Assembly (NCBI GenBank): GCA_040754455.1
Contig: JBFMCP010000006.1
Coordinates: forward strand, 1-64,000
Origin: Nitrospirota bacterium
Lineage (GTDB): Bacteria > Nitrospirota > Thermodesulfovibrionia > Thermodesulfovibrionales > Dissulfurispiraceae
DNA: 64,000 nucleotides
Direction: 5' to 3'
Of the stretch, positions 1,070-48,753 are shown piece after piece. Made by a program: the position numbers and the translations under genes. The notes below the pieces were generated by a model. That model did no database searches and was not told the origin of the DNA. It saw only the letters and a program-made list of their open reading frames with translations. Numbering within the stretch: position 1 is the stretch's first letter; every line of letters begins with the position of its first letter.

Positions 1070-1360
1070 ATGAATCAAATCATTTGCCGGGCCATCGGAG
1101 AGCGCAGGCTTTTGGAGCTTCACTATCACGGCTACCCTCGTATTGTAGAACCGCATGTCTACGGCAAGGACCACCATGGGGATGAGGTAGTGCGCTGTTA
1201 TCAGGTGTACGGCGGCAGCGAGAGCGGTGAGGAGGTCGGATGGAAGCTGTTAAAGGTCAGAGAGATATCCTCTCTCCATATGATAGAAACGACCTTCTCG
1301 ACGCGTCGCCGGTACCAGCGCAATGATACGATTATTGAATCCATTCTTTGCCAGGTATGA
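1070..1360 (+). CDS. Small standalone WYL-like domain protein
   Basis: AI..RRLLELHY..R.VEPH..G...V.CYQ...WKLLKV..I pattern; AGGAG RBS. Confidence 0.65.
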   Translation: MNQIICRAIGERRLLELHYHGYPRIVEPHVYGKDHHGDEVVRCYQVYGGSESGEEVGWKLLKVREISSLHMIETTFSTRRRYQRNDTIIESILCQV

Positions 1361-1624
1361 GCAAAGCCGGTTCCGTAGGAGGCGGCTTGCCGGACACGAC
1401 CCCCATCTGCTCTTTTGTGAGTTCTTTGGCCCGTATAGTATTCCTCATTGCAAATGAGAACACATACTGCTAATCTTTAAAGAGAAGGATGTTTCAGGGT
1501 CTGTTCAGCAGCTAACCGGCAGTCAACCATCTGACGTTCATTCCGGAAAATGCACTCAGAATTCATTTCACATTAGAAAACAAAGTTACCGGCGTGGGTG
1601 GTCCAGGGAAAAAAGGAGGTTCTG

Positions 1625-3759: not shown

Positions 3760-5634
3760 ATGAAAATCAGCACCAGCCTCAAGATTGTCATCATCGCGCT
3801 GTTGAGCTTCTCTCTTGTCAGCGTAGTATCGGTATATCTGCAGCTCAATACAATGACCGACGACGGCCGGGTAGTCAATTATGCCGGCATTGTCAGGGGA
3901 GGCACTCAAAGGCTCGTGAAGCTGGAGATAGGAGGCCGCCAGGCCGACGATCTCATCGCCAAACTGGATAAGATAATCAACGGCCTTACCAACGGCGATG
4001 CCGAACTGCAGCTGCCAAAGGCTACGGACCGGGAATTTGTCGACCGCATGCAGGAGGTCAAAAAGTCATGGGAGGGGCTCAAACAGACCATCGCTAAAGC
4101 AAGGCAGGACAAAGCCCAACAGGACAGCCTTCTTAAAGAGAGCGAGGAGTATTTCGAAGTAACCAATAAAGCAGTGTCGGCAGCCGAGAAGTTTTCGAAA
4201 GGCAAAGTTACCGCACAGAAGACCGTGCAGATGGTTCTCTTTATTCTTAATATCATTATCCTTGGGTATATCTGGATCAGGAGCCGGAAAAAGATCGTAA
4301 AGCCGTTATCACAATTCAAGGAAAAAGTCGAGCAGATTGCAAATGGAAATCTCAAAGTGGCAATGGATTATACCGGCAAGGATGAAATAGGCGACCTCTC
4401 GCAGAGCATGAATAAAATGATTCAGTCCTTCAATACCATGATAAACGGCATACTTACGTCGTCCAACAATGTTGTGCAAACGGTGGATATCTTGAGAGTG
4501 CAGGCTGAAAAGACCTCGGATGGAGCAAAAGACCAGTCCGGACAGGCGGCCCAGATCGCCACTGCAGCGGAAGAAATGAGCCAGACCATAACGGACATTG
4601 CAAAGAATGCCTCGATCGCCTCAGATTCGTCCTCCCATGCAAAGGATGTCGCCGAAAAAGGACAGGAAGTGGCAAACAACGCAATCGAGACCGTGAACAA
4701 GGTGTATACCGCCACTGTAGAGCTCGCCTCGATGGTGGACAAGCTGAACAGCCGCACCGGGGAGATCGGCGATATCGTCACCGTTATTACCGATATAGCC
4801 GATCAGACGAACCTGCTTGCCCTGAATGCCGCGATTGAAGCAGCACGGGCAGGAGAGCAAGGAAGAGGGTTTGCCGTTGTTGCCGATGAGGTCAGAAAGC
4901 TTGCAGAAAGGACCATCAAGGCTACGACCGAGATATCGGACAAGATAAAAGCAGTACAGGCCGAATCAGAGCAGACAAAAGTTTCAATGGATGATGCATC
5001 GGGAGAGGTGACCAAAGCGACTGAATATATCAGAAACGTGGGGAGCTCCCTCCACGACATTGTCGAAGCAGTGCAGAGGGTCAGGGATCAGATAACCCAG
5101 ATAGCGACCGCTGTTGACGAGCAATCTGCGGCTTCGGAAGAAGTGGCAAAAAATATTGAAAAGACGTCGGCTATTGCACGGGACATGGAAAAGATGTCAG
5201 GAGACGTAATGCACGAGGTCAACACGCTGACCGGCATAGCGGAGGAGCTGAGAAACTCGACTGCCGGGTTTAAGACAAAAGGCAATGAGCTTATGATAGT
5301 CGATCTGGCAAAAACCGATCATAGGGTGTTTGTAGGGAGAATCTCTTCATGCCTCAAAGGGGATGTCAGGCTTGACCCCACGCAGCTGACCGATCATCGT
5401 ACCTGCAGATTCGGGAAATGGTACGACAGCGAAGGAAAACACTTGTGCGGGGACCTTCCCAGTTATAAGACAATCGCCGGGCCCCATGAGAGAATCCACA
5501 GTTTAGCAAAAGAAGCGGTAGCAGCACATAATTCAGGTGATCAGAAGAAGGCCGAACAGATTTATAAGGAGATGGAAGCGGTATCGGCACAAATCGGCAA
5601 TCTGCTGGACAGTATAAAACGAGAATATCAATAA
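3760..5634 (+). CDS. Methyl-accepting chemotaxis protein (PilJ/NarX-like sensor, HAMP, MCP signal, C-terminal CZB domain)
   Basis: Two TM helices; [38 protein letters not shown] hairpin; H..CRFGKWY...H...H CZB motif. Confidence 0.95.
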
Positions 5635-41712: not shown

Positions 41713-43461
41713 TTACAGAGCGCTCTTCTGATGCTGCTTCTGTTTTATGTTCCGTATCTTCCGCTCAATACGCTCTTTCAGTCCCTCTTCCTTAGCAGGA
41801 AATTTCAGTGCCTCATTCCACGATTCAAGGGCATCGTGATCACTCTTCAGTGCTTCATAGACATCGCCGATATGCTCATGCAGCACAGGATCGTCGTTCA
41901 CTGACTTCAGGGCCTTTTTAAGTGTCGTCAGTGCTTCATCGAACCTGCCGAGCTTGAAATAGACCCAGCCGAGGCTATCGATAATGTACCCGCTGTCGGG
42001 TTTCAGGTCCAGCGCCCTGGTGATGAGATTGAGGGCCTCATCGAGGTGGATGCCCTTTTCCGCATAGCTGTAGCCGAGGTAATTCATGGCATCGGCATGC
42101 TTCGGATTCAGCTCAATCGTATACTTGAGTGCCGCTACCATATCATCAAAGCGCCCCATCTTCTCATAGAGAACAGCAAGGTTGAAGTTCAGCTCGTCGT
42201 TCTCCTTGAACCGTGCCAGCCCCTCCCTGAAGACAGCTTCAGCTTTGATATAATTCTTCAGCTGCATATGGGCGGCGCCGAGATACGCATAGATTTCGGG
42301 CTTGTCCTTTTCAAAGCTCAGTATTTCCTCATAGATTCTCGCTGCATCATCGTAGCGGTTCTTCTGTGCGTAGATAAATCCGAGGGAAAGAAAAGCGCTG
42401 ATGTTCTTGGGGTCGAGCGTGAGGATCTTTTTCAACTCCTCGATGGCTGCATCGTGCCGGTCCAGCTCTTCGAGGGCGAGCACCTTGTAGTTCCTCACTG
42501 CAAGGTCTCTCGGCTTCGCAGCGAGGACAACCTCGAATTCCGCGAGCGCCCGCTCGTACTGTTTTTCCTGCAGATAGAGCAATCCGAGCCTGAGGTGGGC
42601 GTCGACATTGCCCGGCACCCGCTCCAGCGCCTCTTCAAGGGCCTTGATCGCTTTCCTGAAATCCTTCTCAGAGAGGTACATCTGGAAGAGTTTCTCCCTG
42701 GTGAGCATATTGTTGGGATTCACCTCGAGGGCTTTCATATAGTATGCCTCAGCGGTAGGCAGGTCTCCTTTCAGCTCACGAATAAAACCTGCATTGACGT
42801 ACGCGGCATCAAAGGACGGGCGGATGGTGATGATTTTCCTAAACATATCTTCGGCGCTGTCATAAGACTTCGCTTCGAGATAGGCCGATCCTATATAATA
42901 CAGGGCCATAATATTATCGGGATCCTTTTCCAGTACTTTCCCGAACAGGGCTTGCGCCTTTCTTGTTTCTCCCTTTCCTGCATAGAGCGAACCGAGGAAC
43001 AGAAGCGCCTCATCCTTGTCCGGAGCCAGCCGTACCACACGTTCGTATATTTTTATCGCTGCGTCGCTCTTTTTCTCATTATGGTAAAGCTCGCCGAGAA
43101 GCATGAGTGCAGGGACGTAATCGGGATGCACTTTTATCAGCTCTTCTAGTCCGGTCAGCGCATCAGAGATCCGTCCCACTTTGATGAGCGCCATACTGAT
43201 CTGGGTTTTCAGATGGACAGAATGCGGATCGAACGCAAGGGCGTTCTGGTAGTGCTGCAGCGCCTCTTCCCACTTCTCATCCTGTTCTGCCGCGTAGCCC
43301 TGAAGATACGCCAGAAACGCCTTTCCGGCATAGGGCGGCCACTCCTCCCGATGTCTTTTCTCCGGAGTTGCCGTACTGATCGTCTTCTGGGCAGTCGTTG
43401 CGCACGAGGCAGTAAACAGCGGGAATAGCAAGAGCAGGGGAACGAAAAGTCTTAATAGCAT
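41713..43461 (-). CDS. TPR-repeat lipoprotein
   Basis: Lipobox TASC, many TPRs, NYLGY...DSLGW. Confidence 0.9.
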   Translation of the reverse strand: MLLRLFVPLLLLFPLFTASCATTAQKTISTATPEKRHREEWPPYAGKAFLAYLQGYAAEQDEKWEEALQHYQNALAFDPHSVHLKTQISMALIKVGRISDALTGLEELIKVHPDYVPALMLLGELYHNEKKSDAAIKIYERVVRLAPDKDEALLFLGSLYAGKGETRKAQALFGKVLEKDPDNIMALYYIGSAYLEAKSYDSAEDMFRKIITIRPSFDAAYVNAGFIRELKGDLPTAEAYYMKALEVNPNNMLTREKLFQMYLSEKDFRKAIKALEEALERVPGNVDAHLRLGLLYLQEKQYERALAEFEVVLAAKPRDLAVRNYKVLALEELDRHDAAIEELKKILTLDPKNISAFLSLGFIYAQKNRYDDAARIYEEILSFEKDKPEIYAYLGAAHMQLKNYIKAEAVFREGLARFKENDELNFNLAVLYEKMGRFDDMVAALKYTIELNPKHADAMNYLGYSYAEKGIHLDEALNLITRALDLKPDSGYIIDSLGWVYFKLGRFDEALTTLKKALKSVNDDPVLHEHIGDVYEALKSDHDALESWNEALKFPAKEEGLKERIERKIRNIKQKQHQKSAL

Positions 43462-43505
43462 AATTTTTTATTATCGCACAATGGATAGATAAAGTTAAAG
43501 GTGAT

Positions 43506-43536
43506 AAAAACAGTGGGGAGCCGACAGCTCCCCACT
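43506..43536 (-). terminator. Intrinsic terminator after the peptide gene
   Basis: AGTGGGGAGC-TGTCG-GCTCCCCACT-GTTTTT on the minus strand. Confidence 0.8.
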
Positions 43537-43562
43537 CATGAAGTCTTTGTAATGAAGCAACG

Positions 43563-43625
43563 TTAGCACGAACCCTTACATTTGCAGGTCATCGCTGCCT
43601 TTTTGGCTACCTTCTTGATCGTCAT
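43563..43625 (-). CDS. 20-aa Cys-rich putative RiPP precursor MTIKKVAKKAAMTCKCKGSC
   Basis: AAAGGAGGTG RBS 5 nt before ATG; terminator downstream; directly after the rSAM/SPASM gene. Confidence 0.75.
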   Translation of the reverse strand: MTIKKVAKKAAMTCKCKGSC

Positions 43626-43679
43626 CGGCGCACCTCCTTTTCCAAGGGGTCATGCCGGACTTCATGCCCGGTTATTTCA

Positions 43680-44840
43680 TTATATCATAATATCATATGC
43701 ATAGCAGCGGTAGAGGTCCCGCTTCAGTGATATTTCATTGCCTTCCGTTCCCGTCCCCGCCCTGAACCGGCAGCCCCCGCGACAAAGGTGCATTACCTCA
43801 CAATCCAGTGCGGCGCATTCAAGATCGTCAATCCGTACTGGTTTCATTCTGGTCCAACTCGTCCTCAGCCCTTCCCGTATCGTGCCTATCGGTGCAGTGG
43901 CATAAAAGGCGCATTTGCTTATGCGTCCGTCGGCGAGCACTGACATCAAATGATGTCCGCAGGCATATCCGTCTCCTCCTCCATGCAGGCCGCTGCCGAA
44001 CCCATACCGCAGGTACCTTCCGGCCCTTTCCGGACTCACCTGCAGAAGGGGGTTACATAGCAAATTACCCGCAGCGCAGGGCACATCGACAGTCCACTCC
44101 CTGATGCCCATCTCCTTGAAGAGCACTTCCATTGCATCGAATTCACCGAGGTTCTCCCGATGCACCATGGTGGCAATGGATACCGCTATTCCCGTATTCA
44201 GCACCCTCTTGACCCGCTCCATCACCCGTTTGTAGGTCCCCCTCCCTCTGAGCGCATCATGACCGCGCTCCAGGCCGTCAACGCTGAATTGCACTTCTTG
44301 CACGTTCAATGTTTCCAGTATTTCATCATGCAGCATGAGACCATTGGTGAAGAGTATCTTCCTGAACCGGTATCGGGGCAGCAGCTCATTGAGCGCTGCA
44401 AAGCGGCGGTGCATCAGCGGCTCGCCGCCGGTGATCAGGAGGCGGAGGCCCTGCATCTCCTCGAACTCATCGAGAATTGTCGCGATGCTTTCGATTGACA
44501 ACTCGTTGTCGCGTGCCGCCCCGAGGTAACAATGTCTGCAGGAGAGGTTGCAGCGGTCGGTAATCTGCAATTCGAGATACCGCAAAGAGGGAACCGGTGC
44601 TGCTCCAAACGGAGGCCGTTCCGCTGAAACAGCCTCCGTTGTCAGAATGCCTTCTGAAAGGCAAGAGCCGATAAAGTCTTTTTCAACTCCCGCGCCGCTG
44701 CATCCATCGTGAGCTGCACAGCACTGGAGGAACGAAAAGGCCTCTTCGTCAAGTTCATAAAGCTCATCATTGACCATATCATACACGGCAAAGGTTTCGA
44801 GCCGCTTCAGAACAAACCTGTCGGAGAGATAATAGCGCAT
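43680..44840 (-). CDS. Radical SAM/SPASM-domain protein with an N-terminal RRE-like extension
   Basis: CNLSCRHC, TGGEP, and SPASM cysteines (CGHH...KC...EC....C.....CRGGC...C). Confidence 0.92.
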   Translation of the reverse strand: MRYYLSDRFVLKRLETFAVYDMVNDELYELDEEAFSFLQCCAAHDGCSGAGVEKDFIGSCLSEGILTTEAVSAERPPFGAAPVPSLRYLELQITDRCNLSCRHCYLGAARDNELSIESIATILDEFEEMQGLRLLITGGEPLMHRRFAALNELLPRYRFRKILFTNGLMLHDEILETLNVQEVQFSVDGLERGHDALRGRGTYKRVMERVKRVLNTGIAVSIATMVHRENLGEFDAMEVLFKEMGIREWTVDVPCAAGNLLCNPLLQVSPERAGRYLRYGFGSGLHGGGDGYACGHHLMSVLADGRISKCAFYATAPIGTIREGLRTSWTRMKPVRIDDLECAALDCEVMHLCRGGCRFRAGTGTEGNEISLKRDLYRCYAYDIMI

Positions 44841-44879: not shown

Positions 44880-45314
44880 ATGCACTATTTAGAACATCCG
44901 CTACCATCACTGCCGCGACTGCGAGGCCATCATCTCATCTGTCTTCATTTCTATCGCGGTGAGGGGTACAACGAGGCATTTATCGCCAATCTAGAGAGTG
45001 TTTTAGAGAGAGCAGAAGAGTATGGTGTCGAGGTCTGTCGCGGGACAGACGACGTCTGCTGTGCCTGTCCCTCTCGCGATCTCAACCGCTGCGCCCATAC
45101 CGAGCATGCCGAAGAAGAGATACAGGCAATGGATGATCGCGCACTGCATCTATTAGGGGTGCGGCATGGGCAAACAGTGCAGTGGGGGGCGGTCAGAAAA
45201 AGACTCTCCGGCCTCTTCTCCGAATGGTATGCGGCATGCTGTGATGGATGCAATTGGAAAAGGGCGTGCGAGAAAAACGACCTTTACCGGGATCTTTCTG
45301 CTAAAACAGCATAA
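44880..45314 (+). CDS. DUF1284-like Cys/His protein
   Basis: LRGHHLICL...GEGY..F, DDVC..CP, C..C.W...C. Confidence 0.8.
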   Translation: MHYLEHPLPSLPRLRGHHLICLHFYRGEGYNEAFIANLESVLERAEEYGVEVCRGTDDVCCACPSRDLNRCAHTEHAEEEIQAMDDRALHLLGVRHGQTVQWGAVRKRLSGLFSEWYAACCDGCNWKRACEKNDLYRDLSAKTA

Positions 45315-47394
45315 GATTTTGGTACAGGGGCCACTCATCGATGGTCAGCACCTCCACACGATTCTTGCCCCTTCCCTTTGCCTGATAGAGCGCATCGTCT
45401 GCCCTCTTTATAAAACTGTCTGCGATGTCATTTTCATTGAGCTCGGTCACTCCTATGCTTACGGTGACCTCTCCGACGGCACTGAAGAACTGGCTCTCGA
45501 TCTCTTTTCTTATCTTCTCCGCCAGCCACACCGCTCCCTCAAGCTCTGTTTCCGGAGCAAGCAGGATGAATTCCTCACCGCCGAATCGTGCAAAGACATC
45601 GGTACTCCGTATGTTCCTGCTTACAATATTGGTGGCCGTCACCAGCACCGCGTCCCCCATGGCGTGTCCGAAGGTATCATTCACCTTTTTGAAATCATCG
45701 ATATCGAAGAGGATGAGTGAAAGGGGAATTTTATACCGTGCGGACCGCTGCAGCTCTCTCTCGAGAACCTCGTAGAACTTCCTCCGGTTGTAGATGTTGG
45801 TGAGGGTATCCCGCTCTGCAAGGTCCCTCAACTTCTCCTCCATCATTTTACGTTCCGTAACATCACGGAAGATAGCGCGCGTGGCAAAAGGTTTGCCGTT
45901 TACAAAATTGCAATTAACGCTCCCCTCCACCGTCATTGTCCTTCCCTCTTTCGTCACAAACACCACTTCAACCTTATCGATAACCTCTCCCGCCATCACG
46001 CGTTGGAACATTTCGCCACAGTGGGCATGACAGTCGGGATGAATGATATTAAAGATGGTGAGTTTCGAAACTTCCTCCTCGGTATAGCCCAGAGCTTTCC
46101 GCCACGCATTGTTTACATACTGGAACGTCCCGTCGGGGGCGACGCTCTGGATGAGGTCGTTGGCGTTCTCGAAAAGGTCGCGGTATCGTTCTTCGCTCTC
46201 CCTCAATGCCTCTTCAGCCCATGTCCTGACAATGATCTCCTGCCGCAGGTCCGCATTCACCCGTTCGAGCTCCGCCGTCCGCTCCATGACCCGCTCTTCG
46301 AGCTCGTGCCGTGCCTGTTCCAATGCCGCCCGGGAGATGCTCAGCCGCCGGTTCAGCTTCATCACATAGGTCGTCGTTATCGCCATGAGTGTTACCGCTG
46401 CAGCCGCCAGAGCAAACCAGTACCAGTATGCCCTGAGAAGTTCGGCGGCCGTAATCTTCCCGGAATCCTTATAAATACCGACCTTGAGCTCTTTCAGACA
46501 TTCGTGTACCGGCTGATAATCAAGGGGGATGGTCCAGCCTGCACTGCCGGCCGCCCGTGCCGCACGGCTATTACGGGGCATGTTCAAAAGCGCAATCGTC
46601 ACCTTTCTCGCATTCTCCTCTGAGGTGTGCCGCACTCTCGCAATCGGCCATTCCGGATAAAGAGATGTACTGTGCAGGAAGAGAAATTCCTCATTGTACT
46701 GACGGTTGAGGATACGGAAATCGTCAAGGTCGATTTTTCCTTCCTGGACCATCCGTTCGAGGATGCAGGTGCGAACCGTCCCGGCATCGACCTTACCGTC
46801 CCTTACCGCAAAAACAACGGCATCATGCGTGCCGCCGAATTCGAGCTTCTTGAAATCTTTGTAGGGGTCGATTCCTTTTCGCTTCAGCTCGCGCAGGGCC
46901 ATCCACCACCCCCCGAGGGAATTCTCCTCGACCGCCATAAAGGAGGCATTCGCCAGATCAGTCAGCTCCCTGATATCCTCTCGATCGGCACGGGTGAAAA
47001 TGACGCCGCCGTATTGCGTGTAGCTGCTCCCGTATGCATAGTTCCTCAACGTGGCTATTCTGTTGACGCCATACAGCTTCTCCATCTCAACATAATCGGC
47101 GGGGTTGGTGATGATGAAATCGACCCCTCCCTGTTTCACGACGTGTCTGATTTCATTGAAAGTGAGAGGGACAATGGTAAACGAATGCTCCGGTATCTGC
47201 CGGGAGAGATAGGCAGCAGTGGGATCCCACATCGTGCGTGCGGCTGCAGTGCCCCTGTAGGCGAGCACACCGATCCTGATTTCCTGCTTCGGCTGAGACA
47301 ATACATCGCCGCAGAGCATAAGAGAGACGAGGAGGACCGCTCCTATGAATGTGCATGCGTGCGTTCTCTCGCAGAATTTCGTTACACAGCTCAT
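45301..47394 (-). CDS. Diguanylate cyclase with periplasmic binding-protein and PAS domains
   Basis: Phosphonate-binding-like domain, TM, PAS, RSTD I-site, GGEEF. Confidence 0.93.
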   Translation of the reverse strand: MSCVTKFCERTHACTFIGAVLLVSLMLCGDVLSQPKQEIRIGVLAYRGTAAARTMWDPTAAYLSRQIPEHSFTIVPLTFNEIRHVVKQGGVDFIITNPADYVEMEKLYGVNRIATLRNYAYGSSYTQYGGVIFTRADREDIRELTDLANASFMAVEENSLGGWWMALRELKRKGIDPYKDFKKLEFGGTHDAVVFAVRDGKVDAGTVRTCILERMVQEGKIDLDDFRILNRQYNEEFLFLHSTSLYPEWPIARVRHTSEENARKVTIALLNMPRNSRAARAAGSAGWTIPLDYQPVHECLKELKVGIYKDSGKITAAELLRAYWYWFALAAAAVTLMAITTTYVMKLNRRLSISRAALEQARHELEERVMERTAELERVNADLRQEIIVRTWAEEALRESEERYRDLFENANDLIQSVAPDGTFQYVNNAWRKALGYTEEEVSKLTIFNIIHPDCHAHCGEMFQRVMAGEVIDKVEVVFVTKEGRTMTVEGSVNCNFVNGKPFATRAIFRDVTERKMMEEKLRDLAERDTLTNIYNRRKFYEVLERELQRSARYKIPLSLILFDIDDFKKVNDTFGHAMGDAVLVTATNIVSRNIRSTDVFARFGGEEFILLAPETELEGAVWLAEKIRKEIESQFFSAVGEVTVSIGVTELNENDIADSFIKRADDALYQAKGRGKNRVEVLTIDEWPLYQNLMLF

Positions 47395-47601: not shown

Positions 47602-48753
47602 TTATTCGGGAGTCCTTTCCCTTCGTGCCTTGAAATAGTCCAGAAAGGCTTTTACCACCGCCGGATCGAACTGTCTCCCGGAATGCTTCTGCAGTTCTGC
47701 AAGTGCATTCTCCCAGCTCAGCCCTTTCCGGTACGGCCTGTTGGTCGTCATTGCATCAAAGGCATCGGCCACGGCAACGATGCGCGCCAGAAGGGGAATC
47801 GCCTCCCCCTTCAAACCCTCGGGATACCCGGAGCCGTCGTACCGCTCATGATGATATTTTATGCCGGGAATGACTCCCCTGAGCTTCTTGATCCGGGAGA
47901 GGACAGCGGCACCGAATTCAGGATGTTTCCGCATCTCGCCGAACTCCTCGGAAGTAAGTCTGCCCGGGTTCAGCAATATGGTATCCCTGACGCCTATCTT
48001 CCCGATATCGTGCAGTATTGCGGCAAGCCGCAGCCTGACCATCTCTCTTCTGGTCAAGCCTATTCGCCTGCCAATGGCCAGACTATACTCCATAACCCGC
48101 CGCGTATGCCCGCCGGTATAGGGATCTCTCATTTCTATGGTCTCGGCCAGGGCCTGCATGGTGTTATAGAATGTCTCGTTCAGCTCGTCACGGAGCCGCG
48201 TATTTTCCACAGCAATGGCGACCTGATTTGAGAATGAGACCATCAGCACCATATCCTCAGAAGTAAACATCCCGCTCTTCTTGTTGATTACCTGGAGCAC
48301 CCCGAGAAGCTTATTGCGGGCGGTTACCGGAACGCAGACCATATTTCTGGTTTTAAATCCGCTCCGTTCATCGACCTTTTTGAAAAATCGGGGGTCGTTT
48401 TCGGCATCTTCTACAATCAAGGGAAGCTGGTTCTCTGCAACCCATCCAGCGATGCCCTGCCCTTTCTTCAGCCGGACCGTCTTGACCACGTCGCCCCGCT
48501 TACCGCTCGCCACATCGAAATAGAGATCACCGGTGCTTCCGTCGACAAAGAGCAGGCTGCCGGCTTCGGCATCAGTCATGCGCATAGCGGATTCAATAGC
48601 ACGCCGCTTGATTTCATCGATATCGAGGGCTGAATTGATAAGCGTCGTAAGCTCCACAAAGGCATCAAGGTGATTTGCCTTATGGGGATATGTATATGCG
48701 CTATATCCCTTAGCGCCCACGCCTGCCGCCTCCTCTGCGGTCAACAGGCGCAT
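47602..48753 (-). CDS. GAF + HD-GYP phosphodiesterase
   Basis: LHDIGK and HHERYDGSGYP. Confidence 0.93.
   Translation of the reverse strand: MRLLTAEEAAGVGAKGYSAYTYPHKANHLDAFVELTTLINSALDIDEIKRRAIESAMRMTDAEAGSLLFVDGSTGDLYFDVASGKRGDVVKTVRLKKGQGIAGWVAENQLPLIVEDAENDPRFFKKVDERSGFKTRNMVCVPVTARNKLLGVLQVINKKSGMFTSEDMVLMVSFSNQVAIAVENTRLRDELNETFYNTMQALAETIEMRDPYTGGHTRRVMEYSLAIGRRIGLTRREMVRLRLAAILHDIGKIGVRDTILLNPGRLTSEEFGEMRKHPEFGAAVLSRIKKLRGVIPGIKYHHERYDGSGYPEGLKGEAIPLLARIVAVADAFDAMTTNRPYRKGLSWENALAELQKHSGRQFDPAVVKAFLDYFKARRERTPE

Follow-up and report, generated by a model that had tools for sequence, protein, structure and literature searches.

A candidate peptide-maturation system of Nitrospirota with a radical SAM enzyme and a 20-residue cysteine-rich peptide

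Introduction

A number of short peptides are modified by radical S-adenosylmethionine (SAM) enzymes that carry a C-terminal SPASM part and an N-terminal RiPP recognition element (RRE; RiPP, peptide made by ribosomes and modified after translation), the role of which is to bind a short leader. Here we describe, in a 64,000-nucleotide stretch of DNA from a Nitrospirota bacterium (positions 1 to 64,000 of contig JBFMCP010000006.1; hereafter the window), a gene for an enzyme that resembles them and, behind it, a gene of only 20 codons for a Cys-rich peptide. Together with a small protein with seven invariant Cys that is encoded elsewhere in the same genome, they suggest a previously undescribed system of a radical SAM/SPASM enzyme plus a short peptide. 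We consider it probable that two genes of a conserved, three-gene system for peptide maturation in anaerobes lie in the window and that its product is of a housekeeping kind.

Among the closest described systems, the SCIFF/ranthipeptide pairs, presumably those named CteA-CteB and Tte1186a-Tte1186, have a similar layout: a short Cys-rich peptide lies beside an RRE-radical SAM-SPASM enzyme in anaerobes, is widely conserved and comes with no exporter. The structure of CteB (5WHY/5WGG) also resembles the model of the enzyme studied here (Foldseek E 3e-14; Z 21.4 over model residues 84-383). SCIFF peptides, however, have about 45 residues and six Cys, whereas the present peptide has 20 residues and three Cys. 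The present system also differs in its seven-Cys helper protein, which is sometimes fused to the enzyme, and in its occurrence in Nitrospirota and in the phylum of a Desulfobacteraceae record (hereafter the Desulfobacteraceae-type phylum), which are the two phyla that our analysis covers, and not in Clostridia.

SkfB (6EFN), the best PDB match to the enzyme by sequence (E 8e-17) and the top Foldseek match by structure, forms thioethers derived from Cys. The two enzymes are only 18% identical, and TIGR04403 scores 60.2 bits against a cut-off of 300. Moreover, SKF has an operon of its own and is exported as a killing factor, whereas no such operon genes are present here. Aligned by structure over its full length, the enzyme fits SuiB (5V1T) best (Z 25.0, rmsd 3.9 over 355 residues, model residues 2-385 to chain residues 1-439; rmsd, root-mean-square deviation), with the N-terminal leader-binding domain in the matching relative position. 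Identity is again low (15-18%), and SuiB forms a Lys-Trp carbon-carbon bond, whereas the peptide described here has no Trp.

In the housekeeping systems for mycofactocin (MftA/B/C) and pyrroloquinoline quinone (PQQ; PqqA/D/E), a radical SAM/SPASM enzyme with a PqqD-type module processes a very short peptide whose C-terminal end is invariant, in one copy per genome and with no export. The locus in the window resembles them, with a SPASM-like enzyme and a probable housekeeping role. Their precursor tails read Gly-Val-Tyr or Glu...Tyr, whereas the tail here is rich in Cys and Lys and no tailoring genes are conserved downstream. The enzyme also scores far below the models of MftC (TIGR03962, 75.6 bits against a cut-off of 265) and PqqE (TIGR02109, 53.6 against 381.35).

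An archaeal example has been described (PMC13692751): CrpC of Methanococcus voltae, an RRE-radical SAM-SPASM enzyme, installs ranthionine-type thioethers on the Cys-rich protein CrpA, for which the same source gives an unknown, possibly iron-sulfur-linked role. In contrast to the peptide studied here, CrpA is large and made of repeats, its leader has 47 residues, and its enzyme is assigned to family TIGR04463 (PMC13692751).

None of the 74 NCBIfam families listed for the enzyme comes near its cut-off, and the matches shown, the best 25 of the 74, cover about residues 57-272. The best of them is the ACGX radical SAM family TIGR04340 (91.1 bits against a cut-off of 400, residues 90-237 only), and the sactipeptide maturase StsB (NF045574) reaches 61 bits against 625. 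TIGR04463, the SCIFF maturase (which we take to be TIGR03974, with TIGR03973 as its peptide) and the PapB-type ranthipeptide maturase NF047865 are not among these best 25 of 74; a fused relative of the enzyme, P0354, scores 43.2 bits against the cut-off of 340 for the last. A protein atlas search returned unnamed Nitrospirota clusters only. The peptide itself matches no NCBIfam family even at E<=10, and no Pfam peptide model either. A preliminary description of this DNA had not recognised the pair as SCIFF or another named family, and the curated models bear this out for peptide and enzyme alike. Full-text literature searches, with subscription papers and supplements outside their scope, found no description of the system.

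Results

A conserved 20-codon gene behind the enzyme gene

The peptide gene (43563..43625, minus strand) consists of 20 codons, MTIKKVAKKAAMTCKCKGSC, plus a stop codon, and lies downstream of the enzyme gene with a gap of 54 nt between the enzyme stop and the peptide open reading frame (ORF). Residues 1-12 of the peptide are basic and leader-like, while residues 13-20 form a near-invariant tail, TCKCKxSC, at the C-terminus.

Whole-genome searches of 41 relatives recovered full-length enzyme orthologs (E<=1e-100) in 31. A small downstream ORF ending in TCKCK[GS]SC was present in all of the first 20 loci fetched and, across the 56 orthologous loci, a peptide ending in TCKCK[GSA]SC was found 56-375 nt past the enzyme stop in 48, with the consensus MxIKKVSKKxxTTCKCK[GSA]SC. 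Three of the eight loci without an adjacent peptide are contig ends (L046, L047, L058), and for four of the remaining five a motif search located the peptide gene elsewhere in the genome. The displaced genes again lie directly upstream of the gene for a secreted TPR protein, as in the window.

We also searched for the peptide gene at the DNA level with a degenerate motif of 27 nt that covers the last eight codons and the stop, using the reversed motif as a control. The motif matches 152 of 401 sampled Nitrospirota genomes, almost always once, and the control matches none; the window's own genome has one match. Searching with a C-terminal motif plus stop codon thus recovers micro-genes with almost no false matches.

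The pattern of variation is that of a coding sequence. In 63 distinct loci, the entropy at codon positions 1, 2 and 3 of leader codons 2-13, which the search motif leaves unconstrained, is 0.75, 0.76 and 1.55 bits, respectively. I3, C14, C16, K17, S19 and C20 do not vary in this set, and each of the three stop codons occurs (TAA 39, TAG 16, TGA 8). That amino acids are conserved while third positions and stops vary indicates selection acting on a protein. Metagenome contigs were searched with a motif that specified the last 9 codons only and left the start unconstrained; among the 119 matches listed, 101 begin with M-x-I-[KRT]-[KR] at a distance of exactly 20 codons from the stop. The view of the preliminary description that this micro-ORF is a real gene, with a conserved peptide to be expected beside homologs of the enzyme, is therefore well founded: the peptide is adjacent in 48/56 loci, its motif is present in 152/401 genomes and its third positions wobble. 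Gene finders do not see it, which leaves a gap in annotation: an exact look-up of ten forms of the peptide in about 15 billion predicted proteins found nine absent and the tenth as an unnamed ORF call.

The enzyme resembles leader-binding peptide maturases

The enzyme gene (43680..44840, minus strand) encodes 386 amino acids (aa) arranged as an RRE-like N-domain (about residues 1-80; nt 44601-44840, minus strand), a radical SAM core and a SPASM-like C-terminal part. Its closest database match, from a Nitrospirota metagenome-assembled genome, is 98% identical, and the next matches, from Dissulfurispira, Thermodesulfovibrionales and Nitrospirae, are about 60% identical. Pfam recognises the Radical_SAM core alone (PF04055, 70 bits against a cut-off of 29.5), which places the enzyme in the Radical SAM superfamily. 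The CxxxCxxC motif (C97/C101/C104) is invariant in 59 orthologs, as are seven more Cys: C294, C310, C342, C347, C353, C357 and C379. The C-terminal Cys motif reads CX4CX5CX3C, compared to CX2CX5CX3C in SPASM.

An AlphaFold model of the enzyme has a predicted local distance difference test score (pLDDT) of 85.7. What the preliminary description had seen as an N-terminal extension is modelled as an RRE-like fold of four strands (residues 2-5, 9-13, 17-21 and 26-30) and two helices (32-41 and 54-62) within residues 1-65, a block with a pLDDT of 87-96. The top structural matches in Foldseek are SkfB (E 2.5e-15), CteB and SuiB. Both SuiB (rmsd 3.9-4.1, 354-355 residues) and SkfB (Z 24.8, model residues 7-362) align with the N-domain included, and the SuiB alignments include 5v1t, an entry with bound precursor; the N-domains of SuiB and SkfB are, we take it, RREs. 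CteB, anSME and ChlB align from about residue 81 of the enzyme onward. At the other end, the C-terminal part aligns with anSME, CteB and SuiB up to residues 383-386. The modelled architecture thus fits that of leader-binding peptide maturases of the RRE-radical SAM-SPASM type.

Peptide, enzyme and a seven-Cys protein are inherited together

Co-occurrence was counted in one set of 401 Nitrospirota genomes, with a threshold of E<=1e-60 for enzyme orthologs. An ortholog is present in 162 genomes, the peptide motif in 152 and both together in 150, leaving 12 genomes with the enzyme without the motif and 2 (G181, G372) with the motif without the enzyme. Two of the 12 carry variant tails, NCKCKSSC and TCTCKSSC, beside the enzyme, and in two more the enzyme is at a contig end. 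A short candidate precursor gene that lies beside the enzyme gene and is co-inherited with it, as is expected for an RRE-dependent maturase, is therefore present, and the specific tie between micro-ORF and RRE-bearing enzyme that the preliminary description had proposed is borne out both by the 150 of 401 genomes that have the two and by the full-length alignments with SuiB and SkfB.

A third gene follows the same distribution. In other families it was first spotted as a Cys-rich ORF of about 110 aa, divergent from the enzyme gene and 47 nt away from it. The protein has about 100 aa and seven invariant Cys in the pattern CxxxC, C, CxxC, C-D-F, C-G-G, and no Pfam or NCBIfam family matches it above cut-off. 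Profile searches find it in 157 of the 401 genomes, that is, in 150 of the 162 with the enzyme and in 7 of the 239 others. Families f29 (75 genomes), f30 (28) and f28 (11) of the sample yielded neither the peptide nor the enzyme nor the seven-Cys protein. Among 1.84 billion representatives, a profile search returned 255 members of the seven-Cys family, two of which are fusions to the enzyme (505 and 506 aa). The protein is a third component of the system and probably a helper subunit of the enzyme.

In the genome of the window, the seven-Cys gene is on another contig (C18; locus L070, 1501..1800, minus strand, 99 aa) and its start overlaps the stop of a CutA1 gene (PF03091, E 5e-40) by 1 nt, a translational coupling of the two genes. 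The same arrangement, cutA in front with a start/stop overlap of 1 nt, is found in 11 of 14 loci of this family and its sister family (L070-L084). Further upstream, 7 of the 14 loci have an M29 aminopeptidase gene. A model of the protein is all-helical (pLDDT 77.9), and a fold search against 48,161 solved chains gave no usable match (best Z 3.8 over 41 residues), a result that is evidence for neither a new nor a known fold.

Several further observations concern this gene. The link to CutA (L070 1501-3257, minus strand) may bear on the function of the seven-Cys protein, and a purF-like gene lies further upstream in 9/14 loci. Right after the seven-Cys gene in L070, and convergent with it, there is a gene (1140-1490, plus strand) for a 116-aa protein with a CxxCxxCC domain (PF03692, putative zinc or iron chelating). 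An internal TGA, and with it selenocysteine, was considered and rejected: the ORF is complete without the TGA, which is a stop that had been read through. Where the seven-Cys domain seems to run on at its C-terminus into a response regulator/kinase, a tRNA synthetase or endonuclease V, the apparent fusions are mutually inconsistent and were taken as gene-calling run-ons.

The system extends to a second phylum, with fused forms

Scanning a contig collection with a single protein yielded only 2 loci; whole-genome searches were more productive. In a Desulfobacteraceae record, three genes stand one after another, for the peptide (ending in CKCKRSC), for the seven-Cys protein and for an enzyme of 42% identity. 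In 401 genomes of the Desulfobacteraceae-type phylum, a shorter motif gave 33 matches in 31 genomes, with 1 match of the control. Seventeen of the 21 loci fetched contain an enzyme homolog (40-47% identical), in the gene orders Cys-protein > enzyme > peptide or peptide > Cys-protein > enzyme. Of the four that lack a homolog, two (L101, L104) hold second, orphan copies of the peptide gene in genomes whose first copy is in a cassette. Copper-export genes were not seen in open reading frame listings of the 21 loci or of the Nitrospirota loci.

Three of the loci (L102, L103, L105) encode fusion proteins of 508-536 aa in which the seven-Cys domain stands in front of the RRE-radical SAM enzyme, at its N-terminus. 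No other evidence here speaks as strongly for the small protein being part of the working enzyme and not its substrate.

In some lineages the cassette comes with a cupin-like ORF of about 115 aa (L102 5655-5993; also L103, L105, L021 and L101), which stands behind the enzyme where that is fused; in L019 and P0347 the ORF is itself fused to the seven-Cys protein. It is an occasional fourth member of the cassette. No family matches it above cut-off (Cupin_2, 24 bits, below the cut-off of 27.2). In L021, the Desulfobacteraceae record, the cassette enzyme gene overlaps at its end with a second, shorter radical SAM/SPASM gene (4163-5140, plus strand; 325 aa) whose product matches SPASM in Pfam and which is in turn followed by the cupin-like ORF.

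Expression signals and a structured 5' leader

The preliminary description had placed a strong ribosome-binding site, a terminator and a TGnTATAAT box around the micro-ORF, and all of these are present in the sequence. The Shine-Dalgarno sequence AAAGGAGGTG (43631..43640, minus strand) is followed 5 nt further on by the ATG, and AAGGGAGGTG-type Shine-Dalgarno sequences stand at the matching place in aligned relatives. The intrinsic terminator (43503..43536, minus strand) has a stem of 11 pairs (43536..43512; 7 GC) with a 3-nt loop, followed by the T-run GTTTTTAT, and it forms a closed hairpin in the predicted fold. By eye, GC hairpins with T-runs are found 3' of the peptide gene in most relatives.

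An extended -10 box, TGATATAAT (43679..43687, minus strand), is the candidate promoter of the peptide transcript and overlaps the TAA stop of the enzyme gene at 43682-43680. It is not among the sites listed by a consensus promoter scan of the window because the -35 element is weak there. In relatives, TTTACA-N17-TGnTATAAT recurs at the same place; there it falls among the last codons of the enzyme gene, themselves conserved, which makes its conservation ambiguous and, alone, no proof. The TGnTATAAT box also stands upstream of the peptide gene in three loci where that gene is unlinked from the enzyme (L060-L062). Taken together, these signals point to a peptide transcript of about 150 nt, probably with an extended -10 promoter of its own, a hairpin in the 5' leader, a ribosome site that is masked in part, and a terminator.

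The structured leader, which had escaped the preliminary description, was found here in addition. In the class of loci to which the window belongs, the stretch upstream of the peptide gene aligns well. The 5' untranslated region contains a hairpin (43655..43671, minus strand) with a 6-bp stem, CCGGGC/GTCCGG, and a conserved AUGAA pentaloop, which reads AUGAA or ACGAA across loci. In an alignment of 31 loci (A4), 80.6% of the cells are paired compared to 63.1% after shuffling, and the covariation score is 0.443 compared to 0.180, a value reached by 0 of 500 shuffles. All 7 pairs show two-sided changes, and controls in which the pairing is slid reach at most 49% paired. The alignment omits 10 of the 41 loci of this class, seven for a different leader length (L011, L013, L016, L028, L029, L031, L035) and three as near-duplicates (L026, L060, L061). 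The hairpin occurs twice in tandem in L060-L062 and was not seen in the loci of the other class (L036, L039-L044, L057). Rfam has nothing near its gathering score in 43300-43900. As a separate observation, the AUGAA-loop hairpin may be a site for a factor or a stability element.

A second, short hairpin, CCTT-GGAA-AAGG (43636..43647, minus strand), joins part of the Shine-Dalgarno sequence to a run of pyrimidines upstream and may mask the ribosome site. On 31 relatives, RNAalifold predicts 3 pairs, with one-sided variation only and no two-sided changes; by eye, the upstream run tracks the variants of the Shine-Dalgarno sequence, for example CCAC with GGTGG in L019. We also considered pairing between the 5' and 3' ends of the transcript, as CAUGAAGUC (43658-43666) in the 5' hairpin is the exact complement of GACUUCAUG (43537-43545) in the 3' untranslated region, and the two pair in the window's minimum-energy fold. 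No such complement was seen by eye in the 3' regions of relatives, and the pairing was treated as chance.

Proposed function and alternatives

In the reading that we favour, the peptide is the substrate of the enzyme. Its basic N-terminal stretch, M-x-I-K-K-V-S-K-K, would dock on the RRE-like domain in the form of a strand, T-C-K-C-K-x-S-C, the invariant tail, would enter the active site, and 5'-deoxyadenosyl radical chemistry would crosslink or otherwise convert the tail Cys. Thioether bridges to neighbouring residues are our leading guess for this chemistry because the nearest solved relatives, SkfB and CteB, make thioethers and the archaeal enzyme does so on a Cys-rich protein. The preliminary description had likewise proposed a basic leader and thioether crosslinks, the latter in a CKCKGSC core. 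The product would be intracellular, of a housekeeping kind and metal- or redox-linked, not an antibiotic. Such a role is suggested because the core is near-invariant, is present in one copy per genome, is near-universal in whole families and, both in the window and in those loci of relatives that were examined, has beside it no gene for export, leader cleavage or immunity. An intracellular product had already been considered in the preliminary description, given that no protease or exporter is adjacent, and the distribution seen here fits it. The weakest step is the one to metal or redox handling, at which the cutA operon, the Cys content of both small partners and the cupin hint.

A bolder version, which we hold to be less likely than not, is that the ancient, near-invariant peptide of strict anaerobes yields a new cofactor or metallochaperone with a core role, of the standing of PQQ or mycofactocin, by way of the dedicated radical SAM enzyme and the seven-Cys subunit, whose fold would be one absent from solved structures. 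Its synthesis would be controlled by the AUGAA-hairpin leader and the masked ribosome site.

A number of results weigh against the peptide being matured by this enzyme in this way. The Pfam models for SPASM (PF13186) and PqqD do not match the enzyme at E<=0.01. A leader of 12-13 residues is very short for recognition by an RRE, and the chemistry is guessed purely from the nearest structures. Two genomes (G211, G219) have an enzyme homolog with neither peptide motif nor seven-Cys protein, and peptide and enzyme genes are unlinked in several lineages (f10, f8, G340). Conversely, five genomes have the seven-Cys protein and no enzyme ortholog at E<=1e-25: G403, G205 and G366 have the helper alone, while G181 (99% complete) and G372 (94%) also have the peptide. 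In these last two, peptide and helper may work without this enzyme, unless its gene is unassembled.

The retention of peptide and Cys protein in G181 and G372 also fits an alternative in which the peptide is not a substrate. It would instead be a three-Cys protein that handles metal or iron-sulfur, or an enzyme subunit, and the enzyme would act on the seven-Cys protein or on a small molecule. Three invariant Cys with flanking Lys resemble a metal site, the partner protein with its 7 invariant Cys sits in a cutA operon, and RRE-bearing radical SAM/SPASM enzymes can modify whole Cys-rich proteins, as CrpC does on CrpA (PMC13692751). We think this alternative unlikely, as the fusion of the seven-Cys domain to the N-terminus of the enzyme in several lineages is expected of a subunit, not of a substrate. 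The enzyme moreover keeps an RRE-like domain, whose job would be to bind a short leader, the peptide gene follows the enzyme gene within 56-375 nt in 48/56 loci, and it is hard to see what a plain metal site would need the conserved, basic N-terminal strand for.

Like those of PQQ or mycofactocin, the peptide might also be a precursor from which a small cofactor is made, with a crosslink or decarboxylation by the enzyme at the C-terminus and trimming by general peptidases; the first step would be the same as in the reading that we favour. A very short precursor that is invariant at its extreme C-terminus and encoded once per genome, a lineage-wide, housekeeping-like distribution, and the presence of the mycofactocin and PQQ maturases among the distant sequence matches of the enzyme are all in keeping with this idea. 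The M29 aminopeptidase gene upstream of the cutA and Cys-protein genes in 7/14 loci also speaks for it, but this neighbour is found in one family only. No dedicated peptidase, oxidase or cofactor-dependent enzyme is conserved beside the cassette, and the scores against MftC and PqqE are far under their cut-offs, so that we regard a cofactor precursor as quite improbable.

Still less probable is a secreted antimicrobial or signalling RiPP, such as a sactipeptide- or ranthipeptide-like bacteriocin, for which it may be said that the nearest solved structures, SkfB, SuiB and CteB, are maturases of secreted peptides. Genes for export, leader removal and immunity were found neither in the window nor in the relatives' loci examined. 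In addition, bacteriocin cores usually diversify rapidly, whereas the core here is near-invariant over two phyla, and the system is found in nearly every member of whole families.

That the ORF is no functional protein gene at all, and instead arose by chance, encodes a leader peptide with a regulatory task or belongs to a non-coding RNA, is scarcely credible in spite of its mere 20 codons, the structured 5' leader upstream and the near-absence of its forms from the 15-billion-protein collection, because amino acids are kept while third positions and all three stops vary, the reversed control has 0 matches in 401 genomes, and frame, length and start are kept in the second phylum and in metagenomes.

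If the favoured reading of a peptide matured by this enzyme holds, environmentally important anaerobes, namely sulfate-reducing and related Nitrospirota and the Desulfobacteraceae-type phylum, make a modified peptide that has so far gone undescribed. The extreme conservation of its eight C-terminal residues, together with a helper of unknown fold, points to a strongly selected function, possibly in metal or iron-sulfur handling. The system is directly testable, with three small genes, cultivable hosts (Thermodesulfovibrio, Dissulfurispira) and a mass-spectrometric read-out.

Neighbouring genes in the window

Downstream of the peptide gene there is a gene for a secreted TPR lipoprotein (41713..43461, minus strand), with a promoter-like site of its own at 43498..43470. 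A homolog is present in 27 of 62 enzyme loci, and the TPR gene still directly follows the peptide gene in four loci where the enzyme is unlinked (L059-L062). We treat this neighbour, which is conserved within the class of loci to which the window belongs, as context and not as a proven part of the system.

On the other side, a Cys-rich DUF1284 gene (44880-45314, plus strand; 73 bits) is divergent from the enzyme gene. The preliminary description had suggested that it may belong to the system; this idea was dropped, as a homolog adjoins the enzyme in only 2 of the 62 loci.

The window otherwise contains ordinary neighbours, for example ispE and prs. Two genes of c-di-GMP (cyclic dimeric guanosine monophosphate) signalling lie beyond the DUF1284 gene, both on the minus strand: one (45301-47394) encodes a periplasmic phosphonate-binding-type domain with PAS and GGDEF domains, and the other (47602-48753) encodes a GAF domain with an HD domain of the HD-GYP type.

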